Of a DNA stretch of 64,000 nt, positions 1 through 27,104 are shown piece after piece. The translations under genes and the position numbers were made by a program. Numbering within the stretch: position 1 is the stretch's first letter; the number at the start of each line of letters is the position of its first letter. Origin of the DNA: a virus; IMG/VR virus record IMGVR_UViG_3300049043_000066, positions 2,424 to 66,423 of that record. One strand, given 5' to 3'. The notes under the pieces are model-generated. The model was not told the DNA's origin and ran no database searches. It worked only from the letters and a program-made list of their open reading frames with translations.

Positions 1-139
1 TCTCACATCACGTCTCCTACTTGACGAACCTGGCAATCGGTGGTAAGATGAGTGTTGAAGATGCCTATACGGAGATTAAAAAACTCTATAAGGCAATGAA
101 ACAATCTCACAAATCATTGAAAGGTTCTTGGTTTTAATT

Positions 140-749
140 ATGACTGACTTTGATGTACAAAAGTATTCACTCGAACAACTTAAAGAATGGGTGGATAATG
201 CAGTTTTATCATCAGAAGCATCACCACAGGAAATTTATGACTGTTATTAGAAGTCTGTAGATTGAGAATCTATCATTACTTCAAGTATCACACTGAGTCG
301 TTGATATGAACTTCTGAGCACTGTTGAATGGTAACGGTAAGGGGCACATTGAAGCATATGATGATTATGTCAAAGAAGTTTTGAGAGAAAGAGAGTATTA
401 TGAGGGCAAAGATGACGGTATGCGTCCTTGGGGACACAGTGATTTAGAATATCAAATTGCAAACGAATCTTTATCCTGTGATAAAGATGATACATCACCA
501 GAATGTCAAGGTGCGTGGAATGACTTTGGGAAGAATATTACTACCCAGAAGAACGTTAAAAAAGATAAAGTCGTGAAATGGCAACTTCCTGTTGAAGCAG
601 ATGCAAGTGGTGAGTATTTTGTTCAGTTCCCGATGATTTACTTGATGCAGCAAATCTTAAAGAAGGAGATACTGTGGAATGGGTTGATAATACTGACGGA
701 ACATATACATTGCGTAAAGTAACAAACCACGTAAAATTAGGAGTGCTGA
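140..749 (+). CDS. Phage protein with C-terminal AbrB/SpoVT-like domain (frameshifted; left-arm copy)
   Basis: WQLPVEADASGEYFVQFPDDLLDAANLKEGDTVEWVDN resembles a swapped-hairpin AbrB fold. Mirror at 28220-28836. Confidence 0.55.
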
Positions 750-978
750 TGGCTCTATCACAATCAGTTGAAGAATCACTGAAGGAAGCAGAAGCATCAC
801 TTAGGAATGCACTTGCATATGCTAGCACGCCAAGAACGTCCTATGGTTTGTTCAGTCATTGCTGATCTTATACATCGCATTGAATCACTTCAAAGCACTG
901 ATGCAATTCATAGATAAACTTGAAAACCGCAAACCAGGAGATTCTGGATCATTTGGCACCTTCTTTGATAAAAATTAA
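749..978 (+). CDS. Hypothetical cyanophage protein (MALSQSVEESLKEAE...)
   Basis: Intact mirror ORF at 27993-28226. Confidence 0.6.
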
Positions 979-1240
979 GCTAATGTAAAGCAATCCCGAA
1001 GAGATTATTAAATGCCATACATAATAATGAAAATATATGTTAGGATTTCAAGATAATCACGGGAGCAAAAACTTATGTCACATTCATCCAAACACTCAGA
1101 AAAATCTGAATAATGATGAGTGGAAAGATATGACTGCAATCAAAAATGCAATCGATTATGATATTTCACAAGTTGCATCCAGAAAATGGAAGCATTTACT
1201 GAATATCTGGTAAGAAGTTTGAGAGAAAAAGGTGGTTGAA

Positions 1241-1276
1241 TTAAAAATAGCTCACCTTTAAAGTGTTCCTATAATG
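1241..1276 (+). promoter_or_regulatory. Repeated phage promoter motif A (AAATAGCTCACC-n-AAAGTGTYCTATAAT)
   Basis: Intergenic. Recurs at 5881-5916 and 7128-7163 and ends in a -10-like TATAAT/TATAGT upstream of ORFs. Confidence 0.65.
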
Positions 1277-1289
1277 AAACTCATTTACT

Positions 1290-1875
1290 ATTTTGACACA
1301 TCTCATTGATCATCTTGAAACTGGTGTGAACTGGAACAAAGTTTTTGGGAGTTGTAGATTCTACTTTACTCTGACAGAGGATTCTCTTCAAATGCAGACA
1401 ACTTTTGCCCGGTGCCACCGCCGTATTAGAAAAAGCACTTGCGGAGTTTTCTGATCTTGTTAGAGTTGATAAGACTGGTTATGATTTTATTTGGGAAGAT
1501 GAGACTGGAAAGCTTCATCAAAATTGAGATGAAGATGGGGCAGAATCTTTTTTACAAACGCAAAGATATTCACGCAACTAAAAAGTTCAAGGTCAAGTTT
1601 TTTATCCGAAAAGAAAACTGTAGAGGATTTCAAAAGATCTACTTACGATTATCTTTTGGTTCTTGATTTGACAGCACGTCGGGTTGTTGTTCTGGAAGAT
1701 GAAGTTGCACGTTCACTGTATCAAGAGGGTGCAGATGGTGCGATGATTGAGATCAAACTGTGATTATTACCAGTGTGATATTGGTGAAGTCAATTCAATT
1801 CTTCCTCCGACTTCACTCTCACAGAAGATTGATAAGCAATCGAAGAGTATCTTGACTTTCGATGTGACACCTAGA
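1290..1875 (+). CDS. PD-(D/E)XK nuclease-like protein (frameshifted; left-arm copy)
   Basis: Reconstructed EKAL...TGYDFIWED...KIEMKMG and YDYLLVLD fit a restriction-like D...ExK motif. Confidence 0.5.
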
Positions 1876-1916
1876 ACTGGCACAAGAGATCTTGTAAGGT
1901 GCCCTTTGATGCTTTA

Positions 1917-2008
1917 TCTAATATAATGCTTAATCGTGGTTGTTTAAGCAAAGGGGAGCAGAAATGCTCCTTTTTTATTATAAATAAGTATAACCACGAT
2001 TAAAGCAG
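1917..2008 (+). ncRNA. Putative antisense sRNA/terminator/late-promoter cassette upstream of GIY-YIG endonuclease 1
   Basis: TGCTTAATCGTGGTT (1927-1941) is complementary to leader AACCACGATTAAAGCA (1992-2007). Hairpin GGAGCAGAAATGCTCC plus T-run at 1955-1976; TATAAATA at 1979-1986. Confidence 0.55.
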
Positions 2009-2638
2009 ATGGAATACTACACTTAACTGCTATTTGCGTGAAGATGGAACACCTTATTATATTGGTAAAGGGAAAGGAAAAAGATGGTATTATAAGTATG
2101 GAAAGAATTGCAAACCACCAAAAGATAGAAGTAGAATAATAAAATTAAAACAGAACCTAACTGAAGAAGAAGCATTTAGGCACGAAATCTATATGATTGC
2201 AGTGTTTGGTAAAAAGTGTGATGGGACTGGCATATTGATGAATGTTGCTGATGGTGGCAATGCTCCTCCTAAAATCTATGGAGATAAACATCATATGAAA
2301 ACTGAAGAATATAAGAAAAGAGTGAGTGAGAAACTTAAAAGGTGAAAAATAACCAAGATGGGGGAAGGAACCTTGGAATAAAGGAAACCAATTCAAGAGG
2401 AAGTTAGGAAAAAATAATTGGTGAAGGTAATGGGCAGTCTAAATGGTGGAAATTAACTTTTGCTGATGGCAGAGAACTGTAATGTGTGGATTGTCTAATT
2501 GGTGTAAGTAATGGTTATAGTAAGGGATGTTTAGGTAGAGTTGCAAAAAGGAAAGAAGGTAGAAAAAAACATAAAGATATTGTGGCAGTTGAGGAACTGG
2601 CACACCCACCCACACAAGAGGTGCAGAATACCCTATAA
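2009..2638 (+). CDS. GIY-YIG family homing endonuclease 1 (frameshifted; left-arm copy)
   Basis: MEYYT.AYLREDGTPYYIGKGKGKR...EEEAFRHEIYMI...GILMNVADGG, followed by NUMOD3-like KRVSEKLKG...PWNKG. Confidence 0.8.
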
Positions 2639-2640
2639 TA
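2582..2640 (+). promoter_or_regulatory. Early promoter motif B (GAACTGGCACA ... TATAAT) overlapping the endonuclease stop codon
   Basis: Same GAACTGGCACA core as 1873-1883, 31727-31786, 34093-34151 and 35291-35348. Confidence 0.6.
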
Positions 2641-2669
2641 CATTTGTTGATTTGAGGAACCCCTGATCT

Positions 2670-3076
2670 GTGACAAGAAGTCGCATCGGCTCTTGAACTC
2701 TCTGATGGTTCTGTCCTGTCTGCCTATCATCATTGGGATGGTTATCCTTCCTGGTTGGGTCGTATTCTGAAGACTCACTACAACACCAAGACAAAGTTGC
2801 TGAACTGATTGATGGTGGTGATATGAGTTCTGCGTGGACTAACACTGGTTTCAACAATGAAACTGTAGAGCAAGGTCGCTCTGTACTACTCTTCCCGTGG
2901 TGAAGATTGCCCCCCTGTCTTGATAAGAACCTGGGTGAGTATCTTCAGGACAGCGAAGAGTACTGGTTACGTCTATCACTCGGGAACCGAAGGTTGGTCT
3001 TGTGCTATGATACCTGTGACTGGCACGAAACCTATCTTGAACAACAAGAAATCCCTCTGGAGCACTTGCAGTATGA
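2670..3076 (+). CDS. Conserved hypothetical phage protein (MTRSRIG...YHHWDGYP)
   Basis: Mirror ORF at 26054-26305; the HWDGYP motif is common in myovirus early proteins. Confidence 0.6.
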
Positions 3077-3443
3077 CTCAAACTGAACGTAAGTATCTGA
3101 TTGTAACTGTACTTGGTGTGGTGGCAATCGTTGGTTGGAATGTATTTTGTATCCAACGTGATGCTGTAATGTTTAAGGTATATGCTATAATCAACAAGCA
3201 ACTCAAAATCAAAGATGATAGAGTTTCTCATCATTTCAGCAGCATTTGCCTGGGCATTCTTTGCACTATTTTCCAAACACTTTGATTACCTGAGTAAAAA
3301 ATGATTCCTGAACGTATTTCAACAACTGATTCAACAAGCAGAACAAAGCAAAGAAGCAGAAGAGTTCTGGCAAGAAGTCTGCAATCGAACTTGCAGAGAA
3401 ACACCAGGTAACCTGCGACCACACCTTGGCAGAGTTCTACTAA

Positions 3444-3546
3444 TCTAATATACTGTGCTCTAATTAGGTGACACTATAGATAGAGGAGGAGCAGAAATGC
3501 TCCTTTTCTTGTATAAATATTAAGTCACCTAATTTAAGAAGCAGTT
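3444..3546 (+). ncRNA. Putative antisense sRNA/terminator/late-promoter cassette upstream of GIY-YIG endonuclease 2
   Basis: AATTAGGTGAC (3462-3472) is complementary to leader GTCACCTAATT (3524-3534). Identical hairpin GGAGCAGAAATGCTCC at 3488-3503; TATAAATA at 3512-3519. Confidence 0.55.
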
Positions 3547-4234
3547 ATGTCTCACCAAGGCAAGAGTCACTGTGTCCATTGTATTTTTACGGGAAAGAAA
3601 TACATTGGAGAGACAGTTAAAAATCATTTGAATTATAGAATTGCAGAGCATTTTGCAGATTGTAGAAATTACAATCATAAATTTGCAAATGCTTTAAAAA
3701 AATATGGGAAGAAATGGATTTATATGGGGAGTAATTGAAGAAGTGTGATTTTGATATGTTGAATGATAAAGAGATATACTGGATAGAACATAGGACACAT
3801 TTAATAATGGATATAACTCAACAATAGGTGGGGAATCAAGCCAAAGTATATGCCAAAGGAGATTGTAGAAACTCCAACTTTGATATGAAAGAAATTAAAA
3901 ATCTATCTCAATATTGTAGATATAATAACTTAAATATTGCACACGTTCATGAAACTTTTTATGGAAAAGATTACAACATAAAGGTTATAAATTAATTCAA
4001 GAACTGATGAAGAAATTGAAAGATATGAAAATGAAAGAAAAGGTAAGAGAAGATACAAGTAGAAAAGGTTTACCTGGTGATAGAAATGGAAGAGCAATAC
4101 TTGATTGGAATAAAGTTTATGAAATAAGAAATCTACACACCAGAAATATACAAAAATCAAGAAATAGCAGATATGTTTGGAATTAAACTCTGACATTAGA
4201 AAAAATAGTTTCCAATAAACTATGGACGGTTTAG
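3547..4234 (+). CDS. GIY-YIG family homing endonuclease 2 (frameshifted; left-arm copy)
   Basis: Mirror copy reads GKIYCVHCIFTGKKYIGQT...R..EH...E.YWI...GYNST.GG, with a C-terminal HTH-like segment. Confidence 0.8.
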
Positions 4235-4274
4235 GAACCGAACACTTGACTTTTGCCCACAAAACTTTTATGAT
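4224..4274 (+). promoter_or_regulatory. Sigma70-type early promoter (motif B variant)
   Basis: TTGACT-17 bp-TATGAT; upstream motif overlaps the endonuclease 2 stop. Confidence 0.65.
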
Positions 4275-4706
4275 GTATCTGTTAAACAAAAGAGGTTAAT
4301 GGTACAAAGTTTTATTTAATTGATTATTTTGTTCCTCAAATTTCCAATGGGAATATGGTGGATTGCTTGTAGTTGTTGCAGAAAACGATGAAGAATGTTT
4401 TGATGTTGTTGTTGAATGGGAAATGAAACTTGGACAGAGCATTATAGCAAACTTCGTGAATGTTGTAAAGGATAATGCTTTGCACTTTTGGAAAATGAAG
4501 ACTCAAAAGTTGTAGAGGCATTTACAACGTGACACAAAACATTGAACATACTAACAGAATGATCAACCAACTTAAGTTTCAGTATCAAGGACGTATCACT
4601 GAATTGCAACAAAAGATTACAGAACAACAGCAAGAGATTTTACAACTGCAAGAGCAGATTAAACTGCTCTCATACGTCAAAGATTATGATTGTTAATTTT
4701 TGATTT

Positions 4707-4895
4707 ATGAAACCATCTTTTGCCAAGGGTATTATCGTTCAGCATAAAAATTGGGTGGGAGAAGTTCGTTTTGTTTGCGAAGAATACATCTCAATTTGTG
4801 TTCGTGTCGGAAACAATCGAGCAAACGATATTTGTGTCTTGGTGTATAGAGATGATTGGAGCACAGTTAAGTTGCTGAAAGAATCTGGTAAATGA
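4707..4895 (+). CDS. Hypothetical cyanophage protein
   Basis: Intact 62 aa ORF, identical in mirror 24083-24271. Confidence 0.6.
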   Translation: MKPSFAKGIIVQHKNWVGEVRFVCEEYISICVRVGNNRANDICVLVYRDDWSTVKLLKESGK

Positions 4896-5158
4896 AGAAG
4901 AAGTCTAAAGGATTACTTTATTACATCTATTGTGCTCTTGGTGAAAAGTCTCATCCAAACTGCAATAAAACAGCAGATCGTGTTGCTCTCATTCGTCTTT
5001 TGATTGCTTTACAACTGATTATCACTAACTTTTTTATTATTGGCGGGGTAATAGTTAATATTATATCAATACATCGTCATTGGAATGATGTGCCTAAGGC
5101 CAAGTTCGACAAATACATAAAAAGTATTTGTAGAGATGAAACCTATATTAAAGATTAA
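4892..5158 (+). CDS. Hypothetical membrane protein
   Basis: 88 aa ORF with hydrophobic segment; mirror 23820-24086. Confidence 0.6.
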   Translation: MKKKSKGLLYYIYCALGEKSHPNCNKTADRVALIRLLIALQLIITNFFIIGGVIVNIISIHRHWNDVPKAKFDKYIKSICRDETYIKD

Positions 5159-5190
5159 AAAGGAGGGGTTTTATCCCCTCCTTTAGTTTT
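5157..5190. terminator. Bidirectional intrinsic terminator
   Basis: AAAAGGAGGGG-TTTTAT-CCCCTCCTTT between convergent genes; mirror 23789-23821. Confidence 0.8.
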
Positions 5191-5388
5191 ATTTGGAACT
5201 TACAAAGTCATTGATGACTTCTGCTTGTTGCAGAACTGATTCAAAGTTGGATATTTTTCAGCAAAGTCTGCTGAGATTAAACCATCTGGATTTTGTCGTT
5301 GTGCTATTTCAAACTTCATACTGTAATCATCTTGTAGCATATTGTATGCTTGCTTAAAAATCTCAAAACGTAATTCATAAGGTGTCAT
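5189..5388 (-). CDS. Conserved hypothetical cyanophage protein (MTPYELRFEIFKQA...)
   Basis: RBS aggaga; intact mirror at 23588-23788. Confidence 0.65.
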
Positions 5389-5469
5389 AGGTATTCTCCT
5401 GTGTAATGTGTGTGATGTGTAGTACATCAAAGTATATATTAGAATAAATATCTAAAAAAGTCAAGTATA

Positions 5470-5880
5470 ATGAAAACCTTTCAGCAGTTTTGTGAAGATG
5501 CTGCATCTCAATACAGAGCAGGAGAACTAGCATATCAATCATCAGCACCTGCAAGACTTGCTGCTCGTCGTGCCGCTGCTTATGAACGATCAAGAACTCG
5601 TGGAAAAGATTTTGCTGCTAAATCAAAACAAAGACTGCAAGCACAAAAAGAAAGACACGCACAAATAAGACAAGATTATAAAAGAGTAAGTCAAAGAGAG
5701 GATTTGCAATTAGAGCAAGTCCCAGTTATGAAGTCGAATGAATATAATAAGCAAATTGCAAGACGCCAAGCAACTCAAAAGTCAGCACATATTAAACACG
5801 TTCATAGTGAAATTGGCGCAGAAGCAAGAGCACAACAAGCAGCAAAACAATCAAGACTTAAGACAATTATGAGTCGTTGA
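5470..5880 (+). CDS. Hypothetical late protein (MKTFQQFCE N-terminus)
   Basis: 136 aa ORF preceded by late-promoter-like ATAAATA; MKTFxxF start is typical of T4-like head-associated proteins. Confidence 0.6.
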   Translation: MKTFQQFCEDAASQYRAGELAYQSSAPARLAARRAAAYERSRTRGKDFAAKSKQRLQAQKERHAQIRQDYKRVSQREDLQLEQVPVMKSNEYNKQIARRQATQKSAHIKHVHSEIGAEARAQQAAKQSRLKTIMSR

Positions 5881-6539
5881 ATTAAAATAGCTCACCTCCA
5901 AAGTGTCTTTATAGTGTAAGCAACTTATCTAAAATGGATCACTTTGATGATTTGCAAATTGAAGAGTTTTCTTCCTTTGATTTTGTTGAAGAAATGAATG
6001 AACGTCTCCTTGAAGAGGAGGATAACAAATCTTTTGATGCTTTTTTGAACTCTAATGTTGATTTTTGATTATGACTCCTGTAAGCTCTAATTTTAATGGT
6101 GATGTTGTTACCTTCCTTGGTTTGGTTGGCGTTATTTCAACGTTTATTATTCTTGTCTCGGTTTTTCGTTCCTATTACAATTCTCCTCTTTGTAAATGAC
6201 CGAAACTATTCTGAACGTGCTTTCTCACCTTAAAAGAGTCTCCAAAATTGCTTGGAGGAAACAAGATTTTATTTTTCAAATCAACAACAAGTAGAAGAGC
6301 ACTGACTCTTCTAATTGCAACTCGCTCAACGTGTGCGTCAATTTTATACTGAAGGTCTGTGTGTCTAAAGGTAGAGCAAACGGACTGATACAATCAAAGA
6401 TGCTAAAAAGAGTGTCCAAAGAACGACGAAAACCTTCCAGGACTTTATTACTGAAGCAAGAAAAAGGTTCAACCTATGTTAAAAGACCTATTGAACACAA
6501 ACTTGGCCTGATATTGGTCCTGGAAAGAAGGAGTATAAT

Positions 6540-7123
6540 GTCGTAACTTCTAAAGGTTATCCTAAAGAAGCATACGACGCCAGTGTGATGAGTTCTTCAC
6601 AAACCTGCTCGCACTGGTGAAGGTGTGGACGTATTGGTGCTGAACGTAAGAAAACTCGAACCTGAGAGCACGCAGATACGAAGGCTCGTCGGTGGGGGAA
6701 AATGGAACCTGCTAAAGAATACAAACCGCGCAAGATATTGGTGTTCAAAGACCAACATCCACAAGAGTTCGAACAACCTGAAAGAGAAAGAGGTTCTGCT
6801 GCATTATCACCTGAAGGAGGCACAACGCAAAGCAGACGCGAAAGAAAAGCAAAGAAAAAGAGGGGAATGGGCAACGAACAACCGCATCACGAGCTCTTTA
6901 GAACGAAAAAGAAAGAAACTGTTTCTATCAGACCGATCAACCACAAAAAGCATCTGGAAAAACAAGAGCAGAACGAGATCGAGAAAGAAATAAAGCAAAG
7001 AGTGAAATGTTGAGGCAAAGAAAAGCAAAATTATTTGCTGACTATAAAGAAGTTCACGGCAAAAATCCAACAGGAAAAGAAACAAGATTGCTTGGTTTAG
7101 TTCATCAATCTATGAAAGGTTGA
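6540..7123 (+). CDS. Hypothetical basic, charged cyanophage protein (frameshifted)
   Basis: Overlapping K/R/E-rich ORF fragments 6625-6993 and 6702-7013; mirror ~21880-22430. Confidence 0.4.
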
Positions 7124-7395
7124 GTTATTAAAGTTACTCACCTCGAAAGTGTTCTGTAGTATAAGCACTCTGAGAGCACCTTGAGAATCGACTACAACGT
7201 TATGGAAACTGTGACTGTGAGGGTTGATACCTTAAAACGTCTAATTAGTAGACTTGCAGGATGCAGTCAACGTCTGCTATAATGTTGACTCATCTGAGAG
7301 CGACAGCTTACGAAAAAACCTATCCTTTTGCGACAGGTTATCTCGTTGCTGCGATGAACTCGTGTGATTGACGACCTTAACAACATTCTGAACAA

Positions 7396-8315
7396 GTGAT
7401 TACTCTTCGTCCTCATCAACATCGTGCTGTTGCTGCTATGCAAAAGCACAACAAAGGTCAAGTGATTGTGCCTACTGCAGGCGGAAAAACGTTGAAAGAT
7501 GATTGTAGATACTCTGCGTCAGTTTCAGTCAGAAACTCCACAGACTGTTGTAGTTGTTGCTCTCGCGTATTCTGCTCGCTGAGCAACTCTCTGCCGAGTT
7601 TTTGGAGCACGTTGTTGACCCTATGGTTCGTATTCTTCACGTTCACAGTGGAGAAACCTCACCACCAATCTACTACCAATCCTGATGTGATTTACGATTG
7701 GGCAGTGCAAACTACAACGCGTCATCGACTCATCTTCACCACCTACAATTCTCTGAATCGTATTCAAGAGTCTGGTATTGATGTGGATACGATCTACTTT
7801 GACGAGGCACACAATAGCGTCCAACGTCACTTCTTCTTCCTGCAACGGAACACTTTGCTGCTAATGCAAGGCGTTGCTACTTCTTCACTGCAACTCCGGA
7901 AAACATTCGACTGCACTCCTTGGCTAAACCTGGAATGAATCAATGCTGATGTCTATGGTCAGGTCATCTGTCAGCGTTCCTGCTCCTGAACTCGTGGATG
8001 GGGGGATACATTACTGCCTCCTAAAGTTGTGGTCGAAGCAGTTTGCCGTATTGGTCACCGATCGTCAGGTAACTGCCGAGTGCGACAGTGATGCAATCTT
8101 AACTGGAGACGCTTGATGAGCATTGAGCGTCAGAAAATCTTGGTCGCGCTCGCATCCTGCCAAGCAACTCATCGGCCTGGTGTCGCTATCCTGACTGCTG
8201 CTTCGCAGCTGGATCATCGTGGCTGTACTCTTGGATGACGATTGCCTCCAAGACGGGCGCGGTTATTGATGGTAAGAAAGGTGGACCGTGAGGTAGTTCT
8301 TTGATACTCTCAATG
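7396..8315 (+). CDS. SF2 (DExH, type III Res-like) helicase, 3'-truncated at the junction (left-arm copy)
   Basis: LRPHQ Q-motif, VPTAGGKT, TTYNSL, YFDEAH, FTATP. Confidence 0.8.
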
Positions 8316-8562
8316 TTCAGGTATTCAACTCTGAATTGGGAAGATTTACTGAGAAAGTGTGCAACTTGTCAGGCAATCAAGCTATTATATCAGCATTACA
8401 AGATGATAGAACAAAGGAAAAGATAGAACAAAATTTAAAATTATTGAATGAAGATCTTAATATTAAAAGGATACATAGGAAGATCAACGATTATTTGAAA
8501 TTAATCAATAAAGAAGCTAGAACAAGATACTACACAGGAATGAAGGAAGAGGTTAATTATCC

Positions 8563-9340
8563 TTAATCTTCATCAGGATTAAGTTCGTTAAGTAATCCTA
8601 CTTCTCTCTCAGCATATAAACTTGAGGATAATGTTTAAAAATACAACACCATCGTGTATGCTGTTTTTTAATATAAATTATTGTATTCTTATCTAACCCT
8701 AGATATTCTTGTAAGAAATATTTAATTCTTCCACTTGCTGATGAAGGAAAATAAACAAAACAATGACTCTCGTTGAGAATGCGTCTGGTATCTTTGCCAT
8801 TGGTGGGCAAATGATTGGTCACGATAACATATGTCCGAGTATGTCTACCACATTCCAACAACTGGTTGAGTATCTTATATACGGCTTCCCGTTGCTTTTT
8901 ATCAGGAATTACATCTATATCATCAAAAATGCAAACAGAATCTGCGAGATCCTCTAAAGTTATAGGGTCCTCTATTAAAGTCTCATCGATGGTTATTCGT
9001 TGCGGATTTACACTGTCTAAACTTTCATCTTGACCTATTGCGGAAAATAAATATATTGGTATCTCTTTTTCTTCTTTTTCAATTCTTCTATATACTTCCT
9101 AGTGAAAGTAGATTTACCAGAACCACTTGGTCCTGTAATATATACAATTTGACGCTCAGTAGTTAAATCTGGAACTAATTGAAATTTTGACTCATTAGAA
9201 ATAGATAATCTTTTAAACTCTTTCATTATAGTATCATCGTCTTTATCATTCTGTTGATCTGTTACACTTACTAACATGTTATGGTATTTACCTTTATCCA
9301 CTCTACATAATGGTTTTCCAACTTTGTTTAAGTTTAACAT
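8563..9340 (-). CDS. A32/FtsK-HerA-like packaging ATPase (duplicate copy, frameshifted)
   Basis: GPSGSGKST, VCIFDDID, LECGRH..YVIVTNH. Confidence 0.75.
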
Positions 9341-9505
9341 TATTATATAAATATGCATATATTTTATATAATAATGTAAATAATCCAAATGGTTCTAAAA
9401 TCTCAAATAACATGTTGAATTAGGCTAATTGCTTCATAAATTTAAGCCTAATTTATATTATATAAAGTTAAAATTATTTTCTATATTATTGTTAAATAAT
9501 CGCAA

Positions 9506-9684
9506 ATGGATGTAGAAAGTCAAAAAACATGTGAAATACCAGGCAGTCCATGTAAAGAAAAGCCAAAACAACGCTGTCCTGTATGTGGTGCTCAATTATT
9601 CTAGAAACAGTATAGAAGCACTCTAAAACAAAGAAACATTTAGACGCATTGTTTGTTATGCATGATAGATTTGAAATAAAATAA
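9506..9684 (+). CDS. Small C2H2 Zn-finger protein (duplicate copy)
   Basis: RCPVCGAQL...H.KTKKH. Confidence 0.55.
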
Positions 9685-9908
9685 ATATAGTATAAAGTAA
9701 AGTATGATGAGAATGAAAGTGTTTAAAAATGTGGAACTTGATATGGATGCATCAGGAGCTACTGATGACGACTTAGTTGATCACCATAATGACACTAAAA
9801 AGAAAATAATTATATGTCCTTGTTGCGGTGTATTATTTGATCCTAAAACTAAAGAGCTACAAGTGATAACTTTCAGCAGGAGATATAAAAGATCTAACAG
9901 AACAGTAT

Positions 9909-10207
9909 ATGATGGAGGTAGTAATACAACAGAGCAGAAAAAAGGGAAGAAGCTGGACGCAGTGATTGATGGAAAGAAAACCGTCTCTTTTGGTCAGAAA
10001 AATGCATTTTCAGACTTTACGCTTCATAAGGACTAGGAGAGAAAGAATAGGTATATCGCCAGACATCAGAAGAATGAGAACTGGCAAGATCCTAAAACAC
10101 CTGGATTTTATAGTCGATGGATCCTCTGGAATAAACCTACCATTCAAGCTTCAGTGAATGATATTAATAAAAGGTATAAGAATATTAATTTTATCTTTAA
10201 GAATTAA
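9909..10207 (+). CDS. DUF5754-like giant-virus/PLV-associated protein (duplicate copy)
   Basis: KKLDAVIDGKKTVSFGQK..SDFTLHKD...YIARH...PGFYSRWILWNKPT. Confidence 0.65.
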
Positions 10208-10208
10208 T

Positions 10209-10965
10209 ATGGTAAAGTATAATAACATAATCAACAGATTAGGGAATAAAGAAACCGACATGAAGCACTTTAAGCATTTATTACCCCTGGAATGTTAAAA
10301 CAGTGGTGGAACCGTTCAGTGGCTCCTTTGCTGTCATTAAGCATTTCTATAAGGACTGGAATAAATATGATTTTCATATCAATGATACAGATGAGACATT
10401 ATTCTATGCCTTTAAGCATTATGAGCATATCCACGATGTGATCTATGAGTTAAATAGAGTATATAATGATGACTTCGAATTAAGGAAGCGAGACTTCAGG
10501 AAGTTCTTTGACTCTCTGGAACTCTCACCGCATGTCAAGGAACATATCAGGAAGACTCATTTCGTTCGTGGTCAGTTATGGCGTTGTCCTAAGAATCATG
10601 ACAATTATAACCCCGTGGAAGCCTCCATCCTGGAGAATGCTAAAATAACTAACTTGGGATTATAAAGACATCTTCGAGATGTATAAGGACGACGAGGAAG
10701 CCTTTTTATTTTTGGATCCGCCTTATCTATATTCAGATAATAGTAATTATGCATCTCAAATAAGGGATACAGATATGACCCAGATAGTTGTTGATATCAT
10801 AGAATTTTTAAAACTTGTAAATGTAAGGTGATGCTGGTGATTAATAAATTGAACTTATTATCATATTTATTCAGTGATTATATTAAAGGCGAGTATGAGA
10901 AGATATATCAAATAAGCAAGAAAAAGGCGATACACTTAATTATCTGCAACTATGATATAGAATGA
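10209..10965 (+). CDS. D12-class (Dam-like) N6-adenine DNA methyltransferase (duplicate copy, frameshifted)
   Basis: RLGNK, VVEPFSGSFAV (motif I), HIND, FLDPPY (motif IV). Confidence 0.8.
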
Positions 10966-11392
10966 TTATTTCCATGCTAGAATGTATTTATAAGCAGTGT
11001 TGCTTCGGCTGGAGGCACGATGCTAAAGAAATAAGGATCCTGAACAGAATAAGAACGATATCCAAGATTTGACCGATAAGAGATCGCCCACCTCAAGAAA
11101 TTCTTACTACGGAATTACGACAAGGTGTGCTGTTACTAATTAGGAACTAAAAGGATATCTGATCGGATGAATAAATGGTCTCGGTTTTTGATCTTGTAAA
11201 ATTTCTGCCCCTCCGACTTCTGTTATATCCACGAGCCTCGTGCAAGTCTTTTGACCAGACGCCAGATTCTTTCCTTATCCAGCGGTCCTTTCTTTTTGTA
11301 TAGCCTAACCTTGTCGCCTATAGCAATGTTCAGGTATTTCCTTTTCCAACATAGTTTCTCATTTCTAGTCTTAACTTTTATGCCCACAATAT

Positions 11393-16841: not shown

Positions 16842-17762
16842 ATGCTTTCTATAGAAGATTCTATATCCAAAGCTTATTACGACGATGAAGACGGCTTCGG
16901 CTCCATGAACAAGACTCTGACAGATGCTAAGAGATACAACGAAAAAGTATCCTTAGAAAATGTTAGAAGCATGGTTCGCCAAGAATATAGGCGTCAAGAG
17001 AAACTTGAGAAGGGTATAACAGTTTCATAGCGGATAGGTGTTATGAAGAAATACCAGATGGATTTATTTTTCTTCCAAGATTTAGAGAAGGAATAGGGCA
17101 AAAGCAACCGTCAGCCCTGCTGATGGTCGATATTTTCAGCAAATACTGCGTGGTGGTGCCAACCAAGACCAAACAGCCCGACGATGTCCTTGAAGCAATC
17201 AAAGAGTGCATCAAAGAGCACCAAGCCAAGCCCGAGAGCATCTACTCAGACGAAGAAGGTGCTTTTGTTTCCAACAAAGTGCAGTCTTATTTCAGGAGCG
17301 AGGAGATCCGCCATATCATCACACGAGGACACGCGGCAGTGGCGGAAAGAACTGGGCGGACAATAAAGGATCTATTATATAGACGAGTAGATGGGCAAGA
17401 TAATCCTATATGGACTGACCATATAAAGGCTGTCCTGAACACCTACAACAAGAAAATGGTCCATAGTGCAACAGGCTTTACTCCATATGAAGGTCGCTTA
17501 GCTAAACATCGCATGGAAATTAAAACAAGACTGGAATTAAATGCTAAACGGAAAAGGAAATACCCTAACATTGCTATAGGCGACAAGGTTAGGCTATACA
17601 AAAAGAAAGGACCACTGGATAAGGAAAGAACTGGCATACTGGACAAAAGACCTGCATGAGGTCGTGGATATAAAAGAATCGGAGGGGCAGAAATTCTACA
17701 GGATCAGAAACCGAGACCATTTGTTCATCCGATCAGATATCCTTTTAGTTCCTAATTCCTAA
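16842..17762 (+). CDS. Retroviral-like (rve) DDE integrase of Polinton type (frameshifted)
   Basis: YQMD...VDIFSKY...IYSDEEGAF...AVAER.GRTIK...YN..VHSATGFTP...IGDKVR. Confidence 0.85.
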
Positions 17763-17930
17763 CAGCACACCTTGTCGTAATTCCGTAGTAAGAATTTCTT
17801 GAGGTGGGCGATCTCCTCGTCGGTCAAATCTTGGATATCGTCCTTGATTCTGTTCAGGATCCTTATTTCTTAGCATCGTGCCTCCAGCCGAAGCAACACT
17901 GCTTATAAATACATTCTAGCATGGAAATAA

Positions 17931-18691
17931 TCATTCTATATCGTAGTTGCAGATAATTGAGTGTATCACCTTTTCTTGCTTATTTGATATATCTTCTCAT
18001 ACTCGCCTTTGAATATAATCACTGAATAAATATGATAGATAAGTTCAATTTATTAATCACCAGCATCACCTTACATTTACAAGTTTTTAAAAATTCTATG
18101 ATATCAACAACTATTTGGGTCATATCTGTATCTCTTATTTGAGATGCATAATTACTATTATCTGAATATAGATAAGGCAGATCCAAAAATAAAAAGGCTT
18201 CCTCGTCGTCCTTATACACATTCGAAAATGTCTTTATAATCCAAGTTGGTTATTTTAGCGTTTTCCAGGATGGAAGCCTCCACGGGATTATAATTGTCAT
18301 GATTCTTCAGGACAACGCCATAACTGACCACGAACGAAATGAGTCTTTCCTGATATGTTCCTTGACATGCGGTGAGATTTCCAGGAGTCAAAAAACTTCC
18401 TAAAATCACGCTTCCTTAACTCGAAGTCGTCATTATATACTCTATTTAACTCATAGATAACATCGTGGATATGCTCATAATGCTTAAAAGCATAGAATAA
18501 TGTCTCATCTGTATCATTGATATGAAAATCATATTTCTTCCAGTCCTTATAGAAATGCTTAATGACAGCAAAGGAGCCACTGAACGGTTCCACCACTGTT
18601 TTAACATCAAGGGGTAATGAAATGCTTAAAGTGCTTCATGTCAGGTTTCTTTATTCCCTAATCTGTTGATTATGTTATTATACTTTACCAT
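17931..18691 (-). CDS. D12-class (Dam-like) N6-adenine DNA methyltransferase (frameshifted)
   Basis: VEPFSGSFAV, HIND, FLDLPY (DPPY in the other copy). Confidence 0.8.
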
Positions 18692-18692
18692 A

Positions 18693-18991
18693 TTAATTCT
18701 TAAAGATAAAATTAATATTCTTATACCTTTTATTAATATCATTCACTGAAGCTTGAATGGTTGGCTTATTCCAGAGATATCCATCGACTGTAAAAGCCAG
18801 GTGTTTTAGGATCTTGCCAGTTCTCATTCTTCTGATGTCTGGCGATATATCTCTCCTTCCTCTCCTCAGTCCTTATGAAGCGTAAAGTCAGATGCATTTT
18901 TCTGACCAAAAGAGACGGTTTTCTTTCCATCAATCACTGCATCTAGCTTCTTCCCCTTTTTTCGGCTCTGTTGAATTACTACCTCCATCAT
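18693..18991 (-). CDS. DUF5754-like protein
   Basis: MMEVVIQQSRKKGKKLDAVID...SFGQKNASDFTLHKD...GFYSRW. Confidence 0.65.
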
Positions 18992-19198
18992 ATACTGTTC
19001 TGTTAGATCTTTTATATCTTCTGCTGAAAGTTATCACTTGTAGCTCTTTAGTTTTACAGATCAAATAATACACCGCAACAAGGACATATAATTATTTTCT
19101 TTTTCGTGTCGTTATGGTGATCAACTAAGTCGTCATCAGTAGCTCCTGATGCATCCATATCAAGTTCCACATTTTTAAACACTTTCATTCTTATCATA
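18930..19198 (-). CDS. Hypothetical protein with CPCC motif
   Basis: Mirror of ORF 9704+ (IIICPCCGVLFD). Confidence 0.4.
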
Positions 19199-19215
19199 CT
19201 TTACTTTATACTATA

Positions 19216-19394
19216 TTATTTTATTTCAAATCTATCATGCATAATAAACAATGCATCTAAATGTTTCTTTGTTTTAGAGTGCTTCTCATACTGTTTCTAA
19301 ATAATTGAGCACCACATATAGGACAGCGTTGTTTTGGCTTTTCTTTGCTAGGACTGCCTGGTATTTCACATGTTTTTTGACATTCTAGATCCAT
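19216..19394 (-). CDS. Small C2H2 Zn-finger protein
   Basis: RCPICGAQL...KH.KTKKH. Confidence 0.55.
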
Positions 19395-19555
19395 TTGGAT
19401 TATTTAACAATAATATAGAAAATATTTATAAATTTATATAATGTAAAATAGGCTTGATATTTATGCAATTAGCCTAATTCAACATGTTATTTGAGATTTT
19501 AGAACCATTTGGATTATTTACATTATTATATAAAATATATCATGTTTATATAATA

Positions 19556-20336
19556 ATGTTAAACTTAAACAAAGTTGGAAAACCATTATGTAGAGTGGAT
19601 AAAGGTAAATACAATAACATGTTAGTAAGTGTAACAGATCAACAGAATGATAAAGACGATGATACTATAATGAAAGAGTTTAAAAGATTATCTATTTCTA
19701 ATGAGTCAAAATTTCAATTAGTTCCAGATTTAACTACTGAGCGTCAAATTGTATATATTACAGGACCAAGTGGTTCTGGTAAATCTACTTTCACTAGGAA
19801 GTATATAGAAGAATTGAAAAAGAAGAAAAAGAGATACCAATATATTTATTTTCCAGCAATAGGTCAAGATGAAAGTTTAGACAGTGTAAATCCGCAACGA
19901 ATAACCATCGATGAGACTTTAATAGAGGACCCTATAACTTTAGAGGATCTCGCAGATTCTGTTTGCATTTTTGATGATATAGATGTAATTCCTGATAAAA
20001 AGCAACGGGAAGCTGTATATAAGATTACTCAACCAGTTATTGGAATGTGGTAGACATACTACGGACATATGTTATAGTGACCAATCATTTGCCCACCAAT
20101 GGCAAAGATACCAGACGCATTCTCAACGAGAGTCATTGTTTTGTTTATTTTCCTTCATCGGCAAGTGGAAGAATTAAATATTTCTTACAGAATATCTAGG
20201 TTTAGATAAGAATACAATAATTTATATTAAAAAACAGCATACACGATGGTGTTGTATTTTTAAACATTATCCTCAAGTTTATATGCTTGAAAGAGAAGTA
20301 GGACTACTTAACGAACTTAATCCTGATGAAGATTAA
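19556..20336 (+). CDS. A32/FtsK-HerA-like packaging ATPase (frameshifted)
   Basis: Walker A GPSGSGKST, Walker B VCIFDDID, GRH arginine-finger motif followed by VIVTNH. Confidence 0.75.
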
Positions 20337-20592
20337 GGATAATTAACCTCTTCCTTCATTCCTTTGTAGATCTTGGATGCTTCTTTATTGATTAATTTCA
20401 AATAATCGTTGATCTTCCTATGTATCCTTTTAATATTAAGATCTTCATTTAATAATTTTAAATTTTGTTCTATCTTTTTCTTGTGTTCTATCATCTTGTA
20501 ATAATGCTGATATAATAGCTCGATTGCCTGTAAATTGCAGACCTTTCTCATATAAATCTTCCCAATTCAGAGTTGAATACCTGAACTAAAGT
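20333..20592 (-). CDS. Hypothetical element protein, 5'-truncated at the read end
   Basis: ...VQVFNSELGR...KIEQNLKLLNEDL...EEVNYP; mirror 8316-8566. Confidence 0.45.
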
Positions 20593-20614
20593 AGCAATCA
20601 TAAGTTTTGTAGCG

Positions 20615-20636
20615 CTTCGTTCAGTTACGTATTGCT
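20615..20636 (+). other. Oxford Nanopore ligation adapter remnant (exact 22-mer)
   Basis: CTTCGTTCAGTTACGTATTGCT equals the 3' 22 nt of AATGTACTTCGTTCAGTTACGTATTGCT. It is preceded by AGCAAT (20593), like the bottom-strand adapter, at the element/phage junction. Confidence 0.95.
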
Positions 20637-21609
20637 CAGTCCGACGCATTGATGCCCTCAGATAGGATGCTGTGGTGAATGACAACAAACCGCTTGCCGC
20701 TATCCTTACCCCACGCATTGAGAGTATCAAAGAACTTCTCACGATCCACCTTCTTGCCATCAATAACCGCACCAGTCTTGGATGTAATCATCATCCAAGA
20801 ATAACCACGATGTTCCAGTTGCGAACAGAAAGTCAGATTGTGATACCAAACCGATGATTTGTTTGGTAGTGCGAGCACAAATGAGGATCTTTTTGATGCT
20901 CTGCTCATCAATCGTCTCCAGAAGATTGTCTGCATCACGTTGAAAAACAACCTGACGATCTTTGACCATAGGCAACTGCTTGACCACAACTTTAGGAGGC
21001 AGAATGTAACCAGCATCCACGAGTTCAGGTGCAGGAACCTGACAAATTACCTGACCATAAACTTTCAGGATGATTCATTCCTGGTTTGCCAAATGCAATC
21101 GAATGTTTCGGAGTTGCAGTAAAGAAATAGCAACGCCTTGCATTAGCAGCAAAATATTCAGTTGCAGGAAAAAAGTTACGTTTGACACTATTATGTGCCT
21201 CATCAAAGTAGATCGTATCCACATCAACTACCAGACTCTTGAATACGATTCAGAGAATTGTAGGTGGTGAAGATGATACGATGACGTCTGGACGTTATGC
21301 ACTGCCCAATCGTAAATCACATCAGGATTGGTAGTAGATTGGTGGTGGGTTTCTCCACTGTGAACGTGAAGAATACGAACCATAGGGTCGACAACGTGCT
21401 CCAGAAACTCAGCAGAGAGTTGCTCAGCAAGCAGAATACGGGGAGCAACAACTACAACAGTCTGTGGAGTTTCTGACTGAAACTGACGCAGAGTATCTAC
21501 AATCATCTTCAGGACGTTTTCCGCCTGCAGTAGGCACAATCACTTGACCTTTGTTGTGCTTTTGCATAGCAGCAACAGCACGATGTTGATGAGGACGAAG
21601 AGTAATCAC
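20637..21609 (-). CDS. SF2 (DExH) helicase, 3'-truncated at the adapter
   Basis: LRPHQ, PTAGGK, YFDEAH, FTATP, GYILPP, HSILSEGIN. Confidence 0.8.
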
Positions 21610-23096
21610 TTGTTCAGAATGTTGTTAAGGTCGTCAATCACAGAGTTCATCGCAGGCAAGAATAACCTGTCGCAAAAGGATAGGTTTTTTCGTAACTATG
21701 GCTCTCAGATGAGTCAACATTATAGCAGACGTTGACTGCATCCTGCAAGTTACTAATTAGACGTTTTAAGGTATCAACCCTCACAGTCACAGTTTCCATA
21801 ACGTTGTAGTCGATTGTCAGAGGTGTCTCAGAGTGTTATACTACAGAGACACTTTGGGGGTGAGTAACTTTAATAACTCAACCTTTCATCAGATTGATGA
21901 GCTGAACTCAAGCAATCTTGTTTTTTCTTTTCCTGTTGGATTTTTGCCGTGAACTTCTTTATAGTCCAGCAAATAATTTTGCTTTTCTTTGCCTCAACAT
22001 TTCACTCTTTGCTTTATTTCTTTCTCGATCTCGTTCTGCTCTTGTTTTTCCAGATGCTTTTTGTGGTTGGTAATCTGGAGAAACAGTTTCTTTTTTTTGC
22101 TAAAAGCTGAGTGCAGTTGTTGGTTGCGATTCCCCTCTTTCTTTTGCTTTTCTTTCTAAGATGTCTGCGTTGTGCCTCCTTAGGTGATAATGCAGCAGAA
22201 CCTCTTTCTCTTTCAGGTTGTTGAACTCTTGTGGATGTTGGTCTTTGAACACCAATATCTTTGCGGGGTTTGTATTCTTTAGCAGGTTCCATTTTCCCCA
22301 CCAACAGGCTTTCGTTCTGCGTCTTTCAGGTTCAGTTTTCTTACGTTCAGCACCAATACGTCCACCTTCACCAGTGCGGCGAATTTGTGAAGAACTCATC
22401 ACACTGGCGTCATATGCTTCTTTAGGATAACCTTTAAAGTTACGACATTATACTCCTTCTTTCCAGGACCAATATCAGCAATTTTATATTCAATAGGTCT
22501 TTTAACGTAAATTTCGACCTTTTCTTGCTTCAGTAATAAAGTCCTGGAAGGTTTTCATCGTTATTTGAACACTCTTTTTAGTATTTAGATTGTATCGATC
22601 CGTTTGCTCTACCTTTAGAACACGCGACCTTCAGTATAAAATTGACGCACACGTTGACGGCAAGTTGCAATTAGAAGATCATATTCTTCTTGTTGTTGAT
22701 TTGAAAAAATAAAATCTTGTTTCCTCCAAGCAATTTGGAGTTCTTTAAGGTAAGAAAGCACGTTAGAATAGTTTCAGTCATTTACGAAGAGGAGAATTGT
22801 AATAGGAACGAAAAACCGAGACAAGAATAATAAACGTTGAAATAACACCAACCAAACCAAGGAAGGTAACAACATCACCATTAAAATTAAGAGTTTCAGG
22901 AGTCATAATCAAAAATCAACATTAGAGTTCAAAAAAGCATCAAAAGATTTGTTATCCTCCTCTTCAAGGAGACATTCATTCATTTCTTCAACAAAATCAA
23001 AGGAAGAAAACTCTTCAATTTGCAAATCATCAAAGTGATCCATTTTAGATAAGTTGCTTACACTATAAAGACACTTTGGAGGTGAGCTATTTAATT

Positions 23097-23506
23097 CAAC
23101 GACTCATAATTGCTTTCATCTCCGCACGTTTTTGTGCTTGTTGTGCTCTTGCTTCTGCGCCAATTTCACTATGAACGTGTTTAATATGTGCTGACTTTTG
23201 AGTTGCTTGGCGTCTTGCAATTTACTTATTATATTCATTCGACTTCATAACTGGGACTTGCTCTAATTGCAAATCCTCTCTTTGACTTACTCTTTTATAA
23301 TCTTGTCTTATTTGTGCGTGTCTTTCTTTTTGTGCTTGCAGTCTTTGTTTTGATTTAGCAGCAAAATCTTTTCCACGAGTTCTTGATCGTTCATAAGCAG
23401 CGGCACGACGAGCAGCAAGTCTTGCAGGTGCTGATGATTGATATGCTAGTTCTCCTGCTCTGTATTGAGATGCAGCATCTTCACAAAACTGCTGAAAGGT
23501 TTTCAT
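23097..23506 (-). CDS. Hypothetical late protein (MKTFQQF), different C-terminal allele from the left copy
   Basis: Ends AQQAQKRAEMKAIMSR vs AQQAAKQSRLKTIMSR. Confidence 0.6.
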
Positions 23507-23587
23507 TATACTTGACTTTTTTAGATATTTATTCTAATATATACTTTGATGTACTACACATCACACACATTACACAGGAGAATACCT

Positions 23588-23788
23588 ATGACACCTTATG
23601 AATTACGTTTTGAGATTTTTAAGCAAGCATACAATATGCTACAAGATGATTACAGTATGAAGTTTGAAATAGCACAACGACAAAATCCAGATGGTTTAAT
23701 CTCAGCAGACTTTGCTGAAAAATATCCAACTTTGAATCAAGTTCTGCAACAAGCAGAAGTCATCAATGACTTTGTAAGTTCCAAATAA
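23588..23788 (+). CDS. Conserved hypothetical cyanophage protein (MTPYELRF)
   Basis: Intact ORF with RBS and downstream terminator. Confidence 0.65.
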   Translation: MTPYELRFEIFKQAYNMLQDDYSMKFEIAQRQNPDGLISADFAEKYPTLNQVLQQAEVINDFVSSK

Positions 23789-23819
23789 AACTAAAGGAGG
23801 GGATAAAACCCCTCCTTTT

Positions 23820-24086
23820 TTAATCTTTAATATAGGTTTCATCTCTACAAATACTTTTTATGTATTTGTCGAACTTGGCCTTAGGCACATCATTCCAATG
23901 ACGATGTATTGATATAATATTAACTATTACCCCGCCAATAATAAAAAAGTTAGTGATAATCAGTTGTAAAGCAATCAAAAGACGAATGAGAGCAACACGA
24001 TCTGCTGTTTTATTGCAGTTTGGATGAGACTTTTCTCCAAGAGCACAATAGATGTAATAAAGTAATCCTTTAGACTTCTTCTTCAT
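23820..24086 (-). CDS. Hypothetical membrane protein
   Basis: 88 aa ORF. Confidence 0.6.
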   Translation of the reverse strand: MKKKSKGLLYYIYCALGEKSHPNCNKTADRVALIRLLIALQLIITNFFIIGGVIVNIISIHRHWNDVPKAKFDKYIKSICRDETYIKD

Positions 24087-24271
24087 TTACCAGATTCTTT
24101 CAGCAACTTAACTGTGCTCCAATCATCTCTATACACCAAGACACAAATATCGTTTGCTCGATTGTTTCCGACACGAACACAAATTGAGATGTATTCTTCG
24201 CAAACAAAACGAACTTCTCCCACCCAATTTTTATGCTGAACGATAATACCCTTGGCAAAAGATGGTTTCAT
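24083..24271 (-). CDS. Hypothetical protein
   Basis: 62 aa ORF. Confidence 0.6.
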   Translation of the reverse strand: MKPSFAKGIIVQHKNWVGEVRFVCEEYISICVRVGNNRANDICVLVYRDDWSTVKLLKESGK

Positions 24272-24751
24272 AAATCAAAAATTAACAATCATAATCTTTG
24301 ACGTATGAGAGCAGTTTAATCTGCTCTTGCAGTTGTAAAATCTCTTGCTGTTGTTCTGTAATCTTTTGTTGCAATTCAGTGATACGTCCTTGATACTGAA
24401 ACTTAAGTTGGTTGATCATTCTGTTAGTATGTTCAATGTTTTGTGTCACGTTGTAAATGCCTCTACAACTTTTGAGTCTTCATTTTCCAAAAGTGCAAAT
24501 CGTTGTGCTTTTACAACATTTTCACGAAGTTTGCTATAATGCTCTGTCCAAGTTTCGTTGTCCCATTCAACAACAACATCAAAACATTCTTCATCGTTTT
24601 CTGCAACTACTGCAAGCAATCCACCATATTCCGATTGGAAATTGAGGAACGAAATAATCAGATTAGATAGAGAAACTTTTGTACCATTAACCTCTTTTGT
24701 TTAACAGATACATCATAAAAGTTTTGTGGGCAAAAGTCAAGTGTTCGGTTC

Positions 24752-25441
24752 CTAAACCGTCCATAGTTTATTGGAAACTATTTTTTCTAATGTAGAGTTT
24801 TAATTCCAAACATATCTGCTATTTCTTGATTTTTGTATATTTTTTGGTGTGTAGATTTCTTATTTCATAAACTTTATTCCAATCAAGTATTGCTCTTCCA
24901 TTTCTATCACCAGGTAAACCTTTTCTACTTGTATCTTCTCTTACCTTTCTTTCATTTTCATATCTTTCAATTTCTTCATCAGTTCTTGGAATTAATTTAT
25001 AACCTTTATGTTGTAATCTTTTTCCATAAAGAGTTTCGTGAACGTGTGCAATATTTAAGTTATTATATCTACAATATTGAGATAGATTTTTAATTTCTTT
25101 CATATCACAGTTGGAGTTTCTACAGATACTCCTTTGAGCATATTCTTTTGCTTGATTCCCGCCTATTGTTGAGTTATATCCATTATTAAATGTGTCGTAT
25201 TTTCTATCCAGTATATCTCTTTATCATTCAACATATCAAAATCACACTCTTCAATTACTCCCCATATAAATCCATTTCTTCCATATTTTTTTAAAGCATT
25301 TGCAAATTTATGATTGTAATTTATACAATCTGCAAAATGCTCTGCAATTCTATAATTCAAATGATTTTTAACTGTCTGTCCAATGTATTTCTTTCCCGTA
25401 AAAATACAATGGACACAGTAAATCTTGCCTTGGTGAGACAT
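24752..25441 (-). CDS. GIY-YIG homing endonuclease 2 (frameshifted)
   Basis: GKIYCVHCIFTGKKYIGQT; ORFs 25163-25441 and 24819-25103. Confidence 0.8.
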
Positions 25442-25545
25442 AACTGCTTCTTAAATTAGGTGACTTAATATTTATACAAGAAAAGGAGCATTTCTGCTCC
25501 TCCTCTATCTATAGTGTCACCTAATTAGAGCACCGTTATTTAGAT
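25442..25545 (-). ncRNA. Antisense sRNA cassette of endonuclease 2 (right-arm copy)
   Basis: CTAAATA, anti-leader, GGAGCAGAAATGCTCC-TTTT, TATAAATA, leader, ATG. Confidence 0.55.
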
Positions 25546-26305: not shown

Positions 26306-26335
26306 AATGAGGGGTTCCTCAAATCAACAAATGTA

Positions 26336-27060: not shown

Positions 27061-27104
27061 AAAGCATCAAAGGGCACCTTACAAGATCTCTTGTGCCAGT
27101 TCTC

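Follow-up and report, generated by a model that had tools for sequence, protein, structure and literature searches.

A candidate RNA-level control cassette travelling with homing-endonuclease genes of T4-like cyanophages

Introduction

Masking of translation initiation by RNA structure is described for the T4 genes e, soc, 49, I-TevI, I-TevII, I-TevIII and segB as well as for mobE of phage Aeh1 (PMC3014915, PMC2988022). That is, on long transcripts a helix hides the initiation region, while a late promoter located between the two strands of this helix provides a translatable short-leader mRNA that lacks the 5' strand. With regard to T4 RNAs that regulate in trans, none had been characterised functionally by the time of a 2010 review, according to its accessible text (PMC3014915).

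Two further systems are relevant here. PeSL cassettes of T4-like phages combine a terminator stem-loop with an early promoter, and the accessible part of the respective paper does not mention cyanophages (PMC4122927). In cyanophage S-PM2, the ~225-nt antisense transcript CfrI runs on the opposite strand and spans an endonuclease gene and psbA (PMC2984593).

Here, we study a stretch of 64,000 nt (in the following, the window), which corresponds to positions 2424-66423 of a linear virus record of 66.4 kb (IMGVR_UViG_3300049043_000066) rated 30% complete. An earlier note on this DNA had suggested that a cassette in front of a GIY-YIG endonuclease gene encodes its own antisense RNA. It started from late promoters combined with sequestering hairpins in T4 I-TevI-type genes, which the accessible literature confirms (PMC3014915, PMC2988022).

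Results

First, we inspected the record itself. The reverse complement of 17550-28975 corresponds to window positions 1-11347 with ~95% identity, i.e., the record holds an inverted duplication of 11.3 kb. Over 8.4 kb, a comparison of both mirror arms yields 190 indel events and 208 substitutions. ORFs are broken throughout both of them, and the 6-kb centre contains intact ORFs of 354 and 652 aa. We interpret the duplication as a foldback of an error-rich assembly. Two covariance-model matches on the minus strand, at 26964-27060 and 25441-25544, are mirror images of cassettes 1 and 2 produced by this foldback and are therefore not independent. The copy at 26972-27045 is therefore not a second cassette; the real one is located at 3444-3547.

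Given an error-rich record with its first 11 kb duplicated in mirror image, the cassette might itself be a chance inverted repeat or an artefact of noisy, folded-back assembly. However, the cassette cores do not differ between the mirror copies, and the same architecture is found in 84 unique copies from other records as well as in the cultured Synechococcus phage B3. Furthermore, the covariation across the family (see below) refutes this explanation, to which we assign practically no probability.

Some repeats of the window are noted for completeness. Gly-rich coding repeats of many families populate 38000-64000 on the minus strand (read as CCACCACC on the plus strand), which is typical of large fibre or structural proteins. 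An intergenic motif, i.e., ACTGGCACAAG followed by a GGCAC/GTGCC-type hairpin, is located at 1876-1910 just upstream of cassette 1. It recurs twice on the minus strand (31727-31788 and 34092-34153; repeat family D20), and similar elements are present in phage B3 (L209).

Cassette 1 covers 1918-2011 on the plus strand and is composed of, in this order, a late-promoter-like box (P1), a small hairpin, an intrinsic terminator, TATAAATA, a 17-nt leader and ATG. The hairpin, the terminator with its T6, TATAAATA and the leader followed by ATG were all found where the earlier note had placed them. The arm and its local hairpin occupy 1927-1950 (TGCTTAATCGTGGTTGTTTAAGCA); TGCTTAA pairs with TTAAGCA over 6-7 bp and the middle of the arm is exposed in the loop. 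The terminator at 1955-1976 consists of GGAGCAGAAATGCTCC (1955-1970; 6-bp stem, GAAA loop) and T6 (1971-1976). The late promoter P2 (TATAAATA) is found at 1979-1986, and the leader of its transcript at 1992-2008 (AACCACGATTAAAGCAG).

P1 of cassette 1 (1918-1926) reads CTAATATAA and CTAATAATAA in the mirror copy. Since the record is noisy and the mirror copies disagree exactly there, the box is unreliable in this cassette. The late-promoter-like CTAAT(A)A of the earlier note is thus present as a box, but AT-rich and degenerate or noisy at this place, and the box of the family is NNTAAATA.

The 5' half and loop of the hairpin (1927-1942) are complementary to the leader with one bulge, as had been claimed. 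This pairing includes an exact 12-mer inverted repeat, AACCACGATTAA, at 1992-2003 (plus strand) and reverse-complemented at 1930-1941. A stretch of 114 nt around cassette 1 folds with -33.7 kcal/mol compared to -17.3 +/- 3.3 kcal/mol for shuffled sequences (z -5.0; 0/200 as good), i.e., the arm-leader pairing exceeds chance. When cassette 1 is folded as one RNA, the minimum-energy structure is the long-range helix with the terminator hairpin enclosed. The 16-nt terminator core has 4 exact occurrences in the window versus 0.2 expected by chance (at most 3 mismatches). In a simple terminator scan, the hairpin at 1955-1970 appears on the minus strand alone, and that at 3488-3503 is missing from the list.

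Cassette 2 (3444-3547, plus strand) obtains a covariance-model score of 53.7 bits and folds with -42.3 kcal/mol (z -5.5). It is composed of the upstream box (3445-3452), which is an intact CTAAATA in the mirror copy, arm and hairpin (3456-3481), terminator (3488-3507), P2 (3512-3519) and leader (3524-3546); the A of the start codon (ATG, 3547-3549) is the last cassette base. Terminator core and TATAAATA are identical to those of cassette 1. The arms differ between both cassettes, yet each is complementary to its leader, here AATTAGGTGAC with GTCACCTAATT.

Both cassettes precede GIY-YIG homing-endonuclease genes (HEGs). Gene 1 (2009-2638, plus strand) starts with the ATG at 2009 and has its GIY-YIG frame from 2034; in both mirror copies the frame is shifted between these positions, which reflects a shared error or, alternatively, a true pseudogene. 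Relatives of gene 1 begin with MEYYTYAYLREDG. Over 236 nt, gene 1 is 88% identical to a gene of Synechococcus phage S-SRM01, which has no cassette but a late-type box only. The annotated start of this homologue (QPX48000.1; L005, 2911-3606) overlaps a head-completion gene. The N-terminus of the family begins at ~2957-2963, immediately 3' of a CTAAATAA box, such that the annotated start is probably placed too far upstream. Gene 2 (3547-4190, plus strand) shows N-terminal GIY-YIG motifs and is fragmented by frameshifts; its close relative at L059 has a Pfam GIY-YIG match at 4.6e-8.

A CCCTATAAT(A) box recurs after several nuclease genes, namely at 2625-2700 of the window and past the stop codon in L164, L169, L170, L172 and L180. 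The gene 3' of it is conserved and starts M-S/T-T-R-S-R-V/I-G-L-E-L. The box may be a -10 element of sigma-70 type.

Next, we collected further members of the family from viral contigs. An exact scan for a 20-nt terminator string resulted in at least 117 loci. Among the matches listed, 74 share the architecture, with a late box at most 30 nt further downstream, and 43 are unrelated contexts that contain the string. A second sample of 80 loci was picked by protein similarity to a clean GIY-YIG N-terminus, which avoids selection on the cassette. Here, 49 of 50 unique upstream regions contain the full cassette (48 identified by regular expression plus L138 with its start offset), with at least a dozen different terminator stems. 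The exception, L142, has the late promoter alone. Pooling provided 84 unique cassettes, 83 of them with the target leader.

The consensus starts with NNTAAATA and 4 nt, followed by the arm beginning with T-G/A-C and a local hairpin of 5-8 bp with a loop of 12-18 nt. It continues with a purine-rich spacer, the terminator hairpin with its U-tract, TATAAATA, about 5 nt, the leader and ATG. Hairpin and U-tract are located between arm and leader in all 84 cassettes, and a terminator-promoter core of 32 nt is identical among many of them. P1 is found exactly 4 nt 5' of the arm (TGC) in 83/84 cassettes. It reads NATAAATA in 56 and NCTAAATA in 28 of the 84, and is a perfect TATAAATA in only 8/84; P2 equals TATAAATA in 81/84. 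According to the accessible text of PMC2984593, NATAAATA is the reported late promoter of cyanomyoviruses and TATAAATA that of T4.

Among cultured phages, Synechococcus phages B3 and B23 match the cassette. B3 has the same arms as cassette 1 of the window combined with a different terminator stem, and a covariance-model search of its whole genome yields two cassettes, both followed by a GIY-YIG-like ORF. An extended late-promoter consensus was also sought in B3, where the signal was too weak to use. The N-terminus of B3 gp45 (L123, 1597-2220), annotated as 'translation initiation factor 2', reads like the cassette-associated GIY-YIG homing-endonuclease family. Rfam provided ten matches that are all far below gathering (best 22 bits versus a threshold of 80).

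We then studied the pairing within the family. For the 83 cassettes with a leader, the arm-leader duplex has a mean energy of -21.5 kcal/mol (range -25.3 to -17.6) and 14-18 base pairs; at least 40 distinct arm-leader pairs occur. When 13 family representatives are compared, all 12 non-orphans have their cognate partner ranked first among the 13, both from arm to leader and from leader to arm. Cognate energies range from -18.8 to -25.0 kcal/mol versus a non-cognate mean of -9.8 kcal/mol, and the sole strong non-cognate value is that of the orphan L070 arm with the leader of its own family. This test is free of alignments, while the alignments of the covariance model are fitted to the very structures under test, which favours them.

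The earlier note had called for covariation across homologues, and the covariance model with its 93 matches provides it. For the long-range helix with terminator, 97.2% of the cells are paired compared to 75.8 +/- 0.6% in shuffles (0/500 as high), and 20/22 pairs have changed on both sides. The covariation score is 0.570 versus 0.165 for shuffled data and at most 0.071 when partners are slid by 1-3 columns. For the local hairpin with terminator, 97.4% of the cells are paired (80.9% in shuffles) and 11/12 pairs have changed on both sides, i.e., 6/6 in the local stem and 5/6 in the terminator stem; the respective scores are 0.517, 0.187 and at most 0.134. Covariation is thus seen in three helices, namely those of arm and leader, local hairpin and terminator.

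With leaders cut at ATG, 82/83 cassettes have a duplex that stops 0-4 nt short of it. With flanks added, the leader end of the helix is the 4th-6th nt after P2 in 47/63 distinct duplexes, and the arm end is found at TGC in 21/63. Sharp helix boundaries had been considered as an argument for action in trans; we dropped it, since the boundaries are variable once flanks are added.

The inverted repeat might alternatively be a DNA-level element, e.g., an operator by which the nuclease represses itself, as for I-TevI, or a recombination or cruciform site. I-TevI indeed binds an operator overlapping its late promoter, as stated in the accessible text of PMC2988022, and in the cassettes the start site of P2 is the beginning of the downstream arm. 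A symmetric DNA site would give rise to plus-strand G·U and A·C cells alike, but the arm-leader duplexes contain 38 G·U and 0 A·C. In the 93-match alignment, the pair next to the 5' end is G-C in 77, G·U in 9 and A-U in 4 cases. The wobbles are G·U only, which points to pairing of plus-strand RNA rather than to a DNA operator or cruciform, and the pattern argues for selection at the RNA level. In addition, ~60 nt separate the arms, many arm sequences occur with a single nuclease family, and a single arm with unrelated genes. We therefore rate the DNA-level explanation as very improbable.

Next, we evaluated whether the arm could be part of a separate RNA. The predicted short RNA has a minimum-energy fold of exactly two hairpins in 83/83 cassettes. 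For the window, the two putative short RNAs fold into two hairpins with z -5.1 and -4.1, and the leaders alone are weakly structured. With regard to other targets, the arm 12-mer has no other exact match in the window or the complete B3 genome, and two matches with 1 mismatch in B3 are at chance level. Judged by these matches, the arm's only evident partner is its own leader.

The earlier note had offered a free silencing RNA of ~50 nt, or alternatively a guide-like RNA bound by the nuclease. For the former, the arm does behave as a unit of its own given the P1 box in 83/84 cassettes, the covarying hairpin and terminator and the two-hairpin fold, but the same pairing also works in cis. The latter is not supported, given arms that occur with unrelated genes, a nuclease family that occurs with many arms and the missing further 12-mer match.

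Transcription from upstream has to be considered as well. By a strict test, 49/84 contexts have a co-directional upstream ORF that extends into or up to the box; in most others it ends within about 25 nt, and all upstream frames with a PHROG match are on the strand of the cassette. In 8/10 cases inspected, the TAA of P1 doubles as stop codon of the upstream gene, such that part of the P1 conservation may be a stop-codon constraint. Cassettes inserted against their neighbours, for which P1 would be the sole source of arm RNA, were sought at five loci and none was confirmed (PHROG matches on plus-strand frames only).

RNA libraries were inspected for the clean relative L124, parts of which occur in 17 RNA runs. 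The four examined provide contigs only, for which DNA carry-over is possible. This also applies to the contigs spanning the L124 cassette (e.g., 444-606, depth 637). In one contig (L124 547-606, run X1), the arm comes from one cassette family, whereas terminator, promoter and leader come from a different one. It is probably a graph chimera via the common 32-nt core; as cassettes have this core in common, RNA-library contigs are chimeric at them.

These observations bear on a purely cis-acting mask of T4 type, where the arm matters only on read-through RNA and no functional short RNA exists. Hairpin and terminator would then be the 3' end of the upstream mRNA, and P1 would be stop-codon context instead of a promoter. 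This view of P1 carries appreciable weight. The cis-acting mask has the T4 precedent (PMC3014915 and PMC2988022, as far as accessible) and agrees with the minimum-energy fold of read-through RNA, the co-directional upstream ORFs and the shared TAA. However, the terminator between the strands would remove most of the RNA that such a mask needs. Furthermore, the six invariant letters of P1 and its 4-nt spacing (83/84, at least 31 upstream contexts) exceed what a stop codon needs, and the 3' half of the local hairpin covaries though it has no role in the long-range helix. Taken together, we consider an exclusively cis-acting mask possible but rather unlikely.

Finally, we investigated the mobility of the cassette. 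The 69 loci examined comprise at least 31 different contexts upstream and 12 gene clusters downstream of the cassette, and a single arm family is seen in eight upstream contexts. One arm family occurs with unrelated genes and one nuclease family with many arms. The downstream nuclease genes have 170-271 codons, except for one of 92. Pfam assigns GIY-YIG (4.6e-8) as well as NUMOD3, above the cut-off in three genes and weaker in three more; HNH is just under the cut-off. A conserved 3' boundary of the mobile unit was not found, with a late box near the stop codon in only 10/49 unique ends. In L164 (1-495), the cassette follows an ORF whose tail resembles the C-terminus of the photosystem II D2 protein (psbD).

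Some alleles have the cassette without a HEG. L070 and L075 have the upstream ORF tail of L006, and L107 has that of L045; in all three, box, hairpin and terminator are kept and directly followed by a T4_baseplate-family gene. As L107 retains a relic of the leader, we interpret them as loss alleles. The HEG-less orphan units L086 and L116 have common flanks and different arms, which points to recurrent invasion and loss at a single locus or to an exchange of arms.

Discussion

We propose that the cassette is an RNA-level control unit that travels with homing-endonuclease genes of T4-like cyanophages. We lean towards this statement as a whole, i.e., with the short RNA included. Against it count the rarity of a perfect P1, the variable helix ends, and the S-SRM01 homologue and L142, for which a late promoter alone is sufficient. 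The first 14-18 nt of the upstream segment are complementary to the entire leader of the HEG mRNA, which extends from about the P2 start site up to a point 0-4 nt ahead of AUG. Transcripts that start at P2 would lack the arm and be translatable, while arm-bearing RNA would pair with the leader and block 30S binding. We consider it very likely that the arm-leader pairing represses translation.

The arm could be supplied via two routes. In cis, it would be part of RNA that reads through the terminator from upstream genes, i.e., the principle of T4 e and I-TevI. In trans, the most likely supply would be an RNA of ~50 nt with two hairpins that starts at the weaker P1 and ends at the terminator. 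Given a terminator inside the mask, the P1 box and the covarying local hairpin, such a late two-hairpin RNA is the simplest reading. P1 is placed such that the first paired base of the arm would be the transcription start, and the RNA would present its anti-leader in the loop and the 5' stem. It would titrate the mRNA pool, whereas read-through RNA would be masked in cis. As the P1 box mostly deviates from the perfect sequence and P2 hardly ever does, we infer a subtractive control, with the nuclease presumably made late and at low level regardless of the insertion site. We think it probable that a discrete short RNA is made; that it contributes materially in trans falls, in our estimate, slightly short of an even chance.

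The cassette is a concrete and testable candidate for a trans-acting regulatory RNA in T4-like phages. It also illustrates how a selfish nuclease may take an insulated expression unit to dozens of genomic sites: the terminator would stop transcription from upstream, the promoter is its own, and the mask would deal with all remaining RNA. Moreover, at least 40 natural arm-leader pairs, with own-partner preference in 12 arm-family representatives, would be ready-made orthogonal RNA regulators.

A more far-reaching version seems improbable to us. Here, the unit would act as a late small RNA in trans, the fast-diverging orthogonal arms would reflect conflict, and HEG-less alleles would provide RNA-based anti-homing immunity. 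If true, orphan units would shut off the matching nuclease encoded by a co-infecting phage and thereby resist homing, with L070 and L075 (L006 locus), L107 (L045 locus), L086 and L116 as candidates.

How does the cassette relate to known systems? In the type I pairs tisB/istR-1 and zorO/orzO, the small RNA is encoded beside and not opposite its target and has ~20 nt in common with the 5' UTR. Such pairs with an adjacent small RNA are divergently oriented, and the target is a small membrane peptide. The cassette resembles them in a candidate neighbouring short RNA that is complementary to a harmful gene's leader over a limited stretch and is predicted to form two hairpins including its own terminator, where both helices covary. 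In contrast, its orientation is tandem, both partners would be late phage transcripts, the target is a nuclease of ~170-270 aa, and an addiction logic is not evident. The membership among type I antitoxins that the earlier note had considered is thus not supported, since the targets are GIY-YIG, HNH and NUMOD3 nucleases instead of small toxic peptides.

Compared to PeSL, as far as the accessible text describes it, the cassette is likewise a small conserved module of stem-loop plus promoter that flanks variable genes and is linked to modular shuffling. However, PeSL have early promoters, lack a pair of antisense arm and leader and are not tied to nucleases, whereas the promoter boxes of the cassette are of late type, which sets it apart from the early-promoter definition of PeSL. 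With CfrI, again judged by the accessible description, it has in common to be an RNA of a T4-like cyanophage tied to a homing-endonuclease gene. Unlike CfrI, the candidate RNA is encoded on the same strand, has ~50 nt, and owes its complementarity to an inverted repeat.

A literature search, with the supplements of the 2023 viral structured RNA survey (PMC10690425) outside its scope, found no description of the cassette. Its known core is the T4-type translational mask with nested late promoter. As in the accessible accounts of that mask, the helix covers the translation initiation region (82/83, backed by covariation), P2 is located between the two strands such that late transcripts lack the 5' strand, and the unit is found on GIY-YIG and HNH homing endonucleases. 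Different from the uninterrupted upstream transcripts described there, and new, is an intrinsic terminator inside the mask, i.e., between the strands (84/84), a conserved second late-promoter box directly before the 5' strand, 4 nt ahead of the arm, and a 5' strand with a covarying hairpin of its own. Unlike the T4-type masks, the cassette is furthermore portable and highly diversified, with its arm-leader pairs numbering at least 40.
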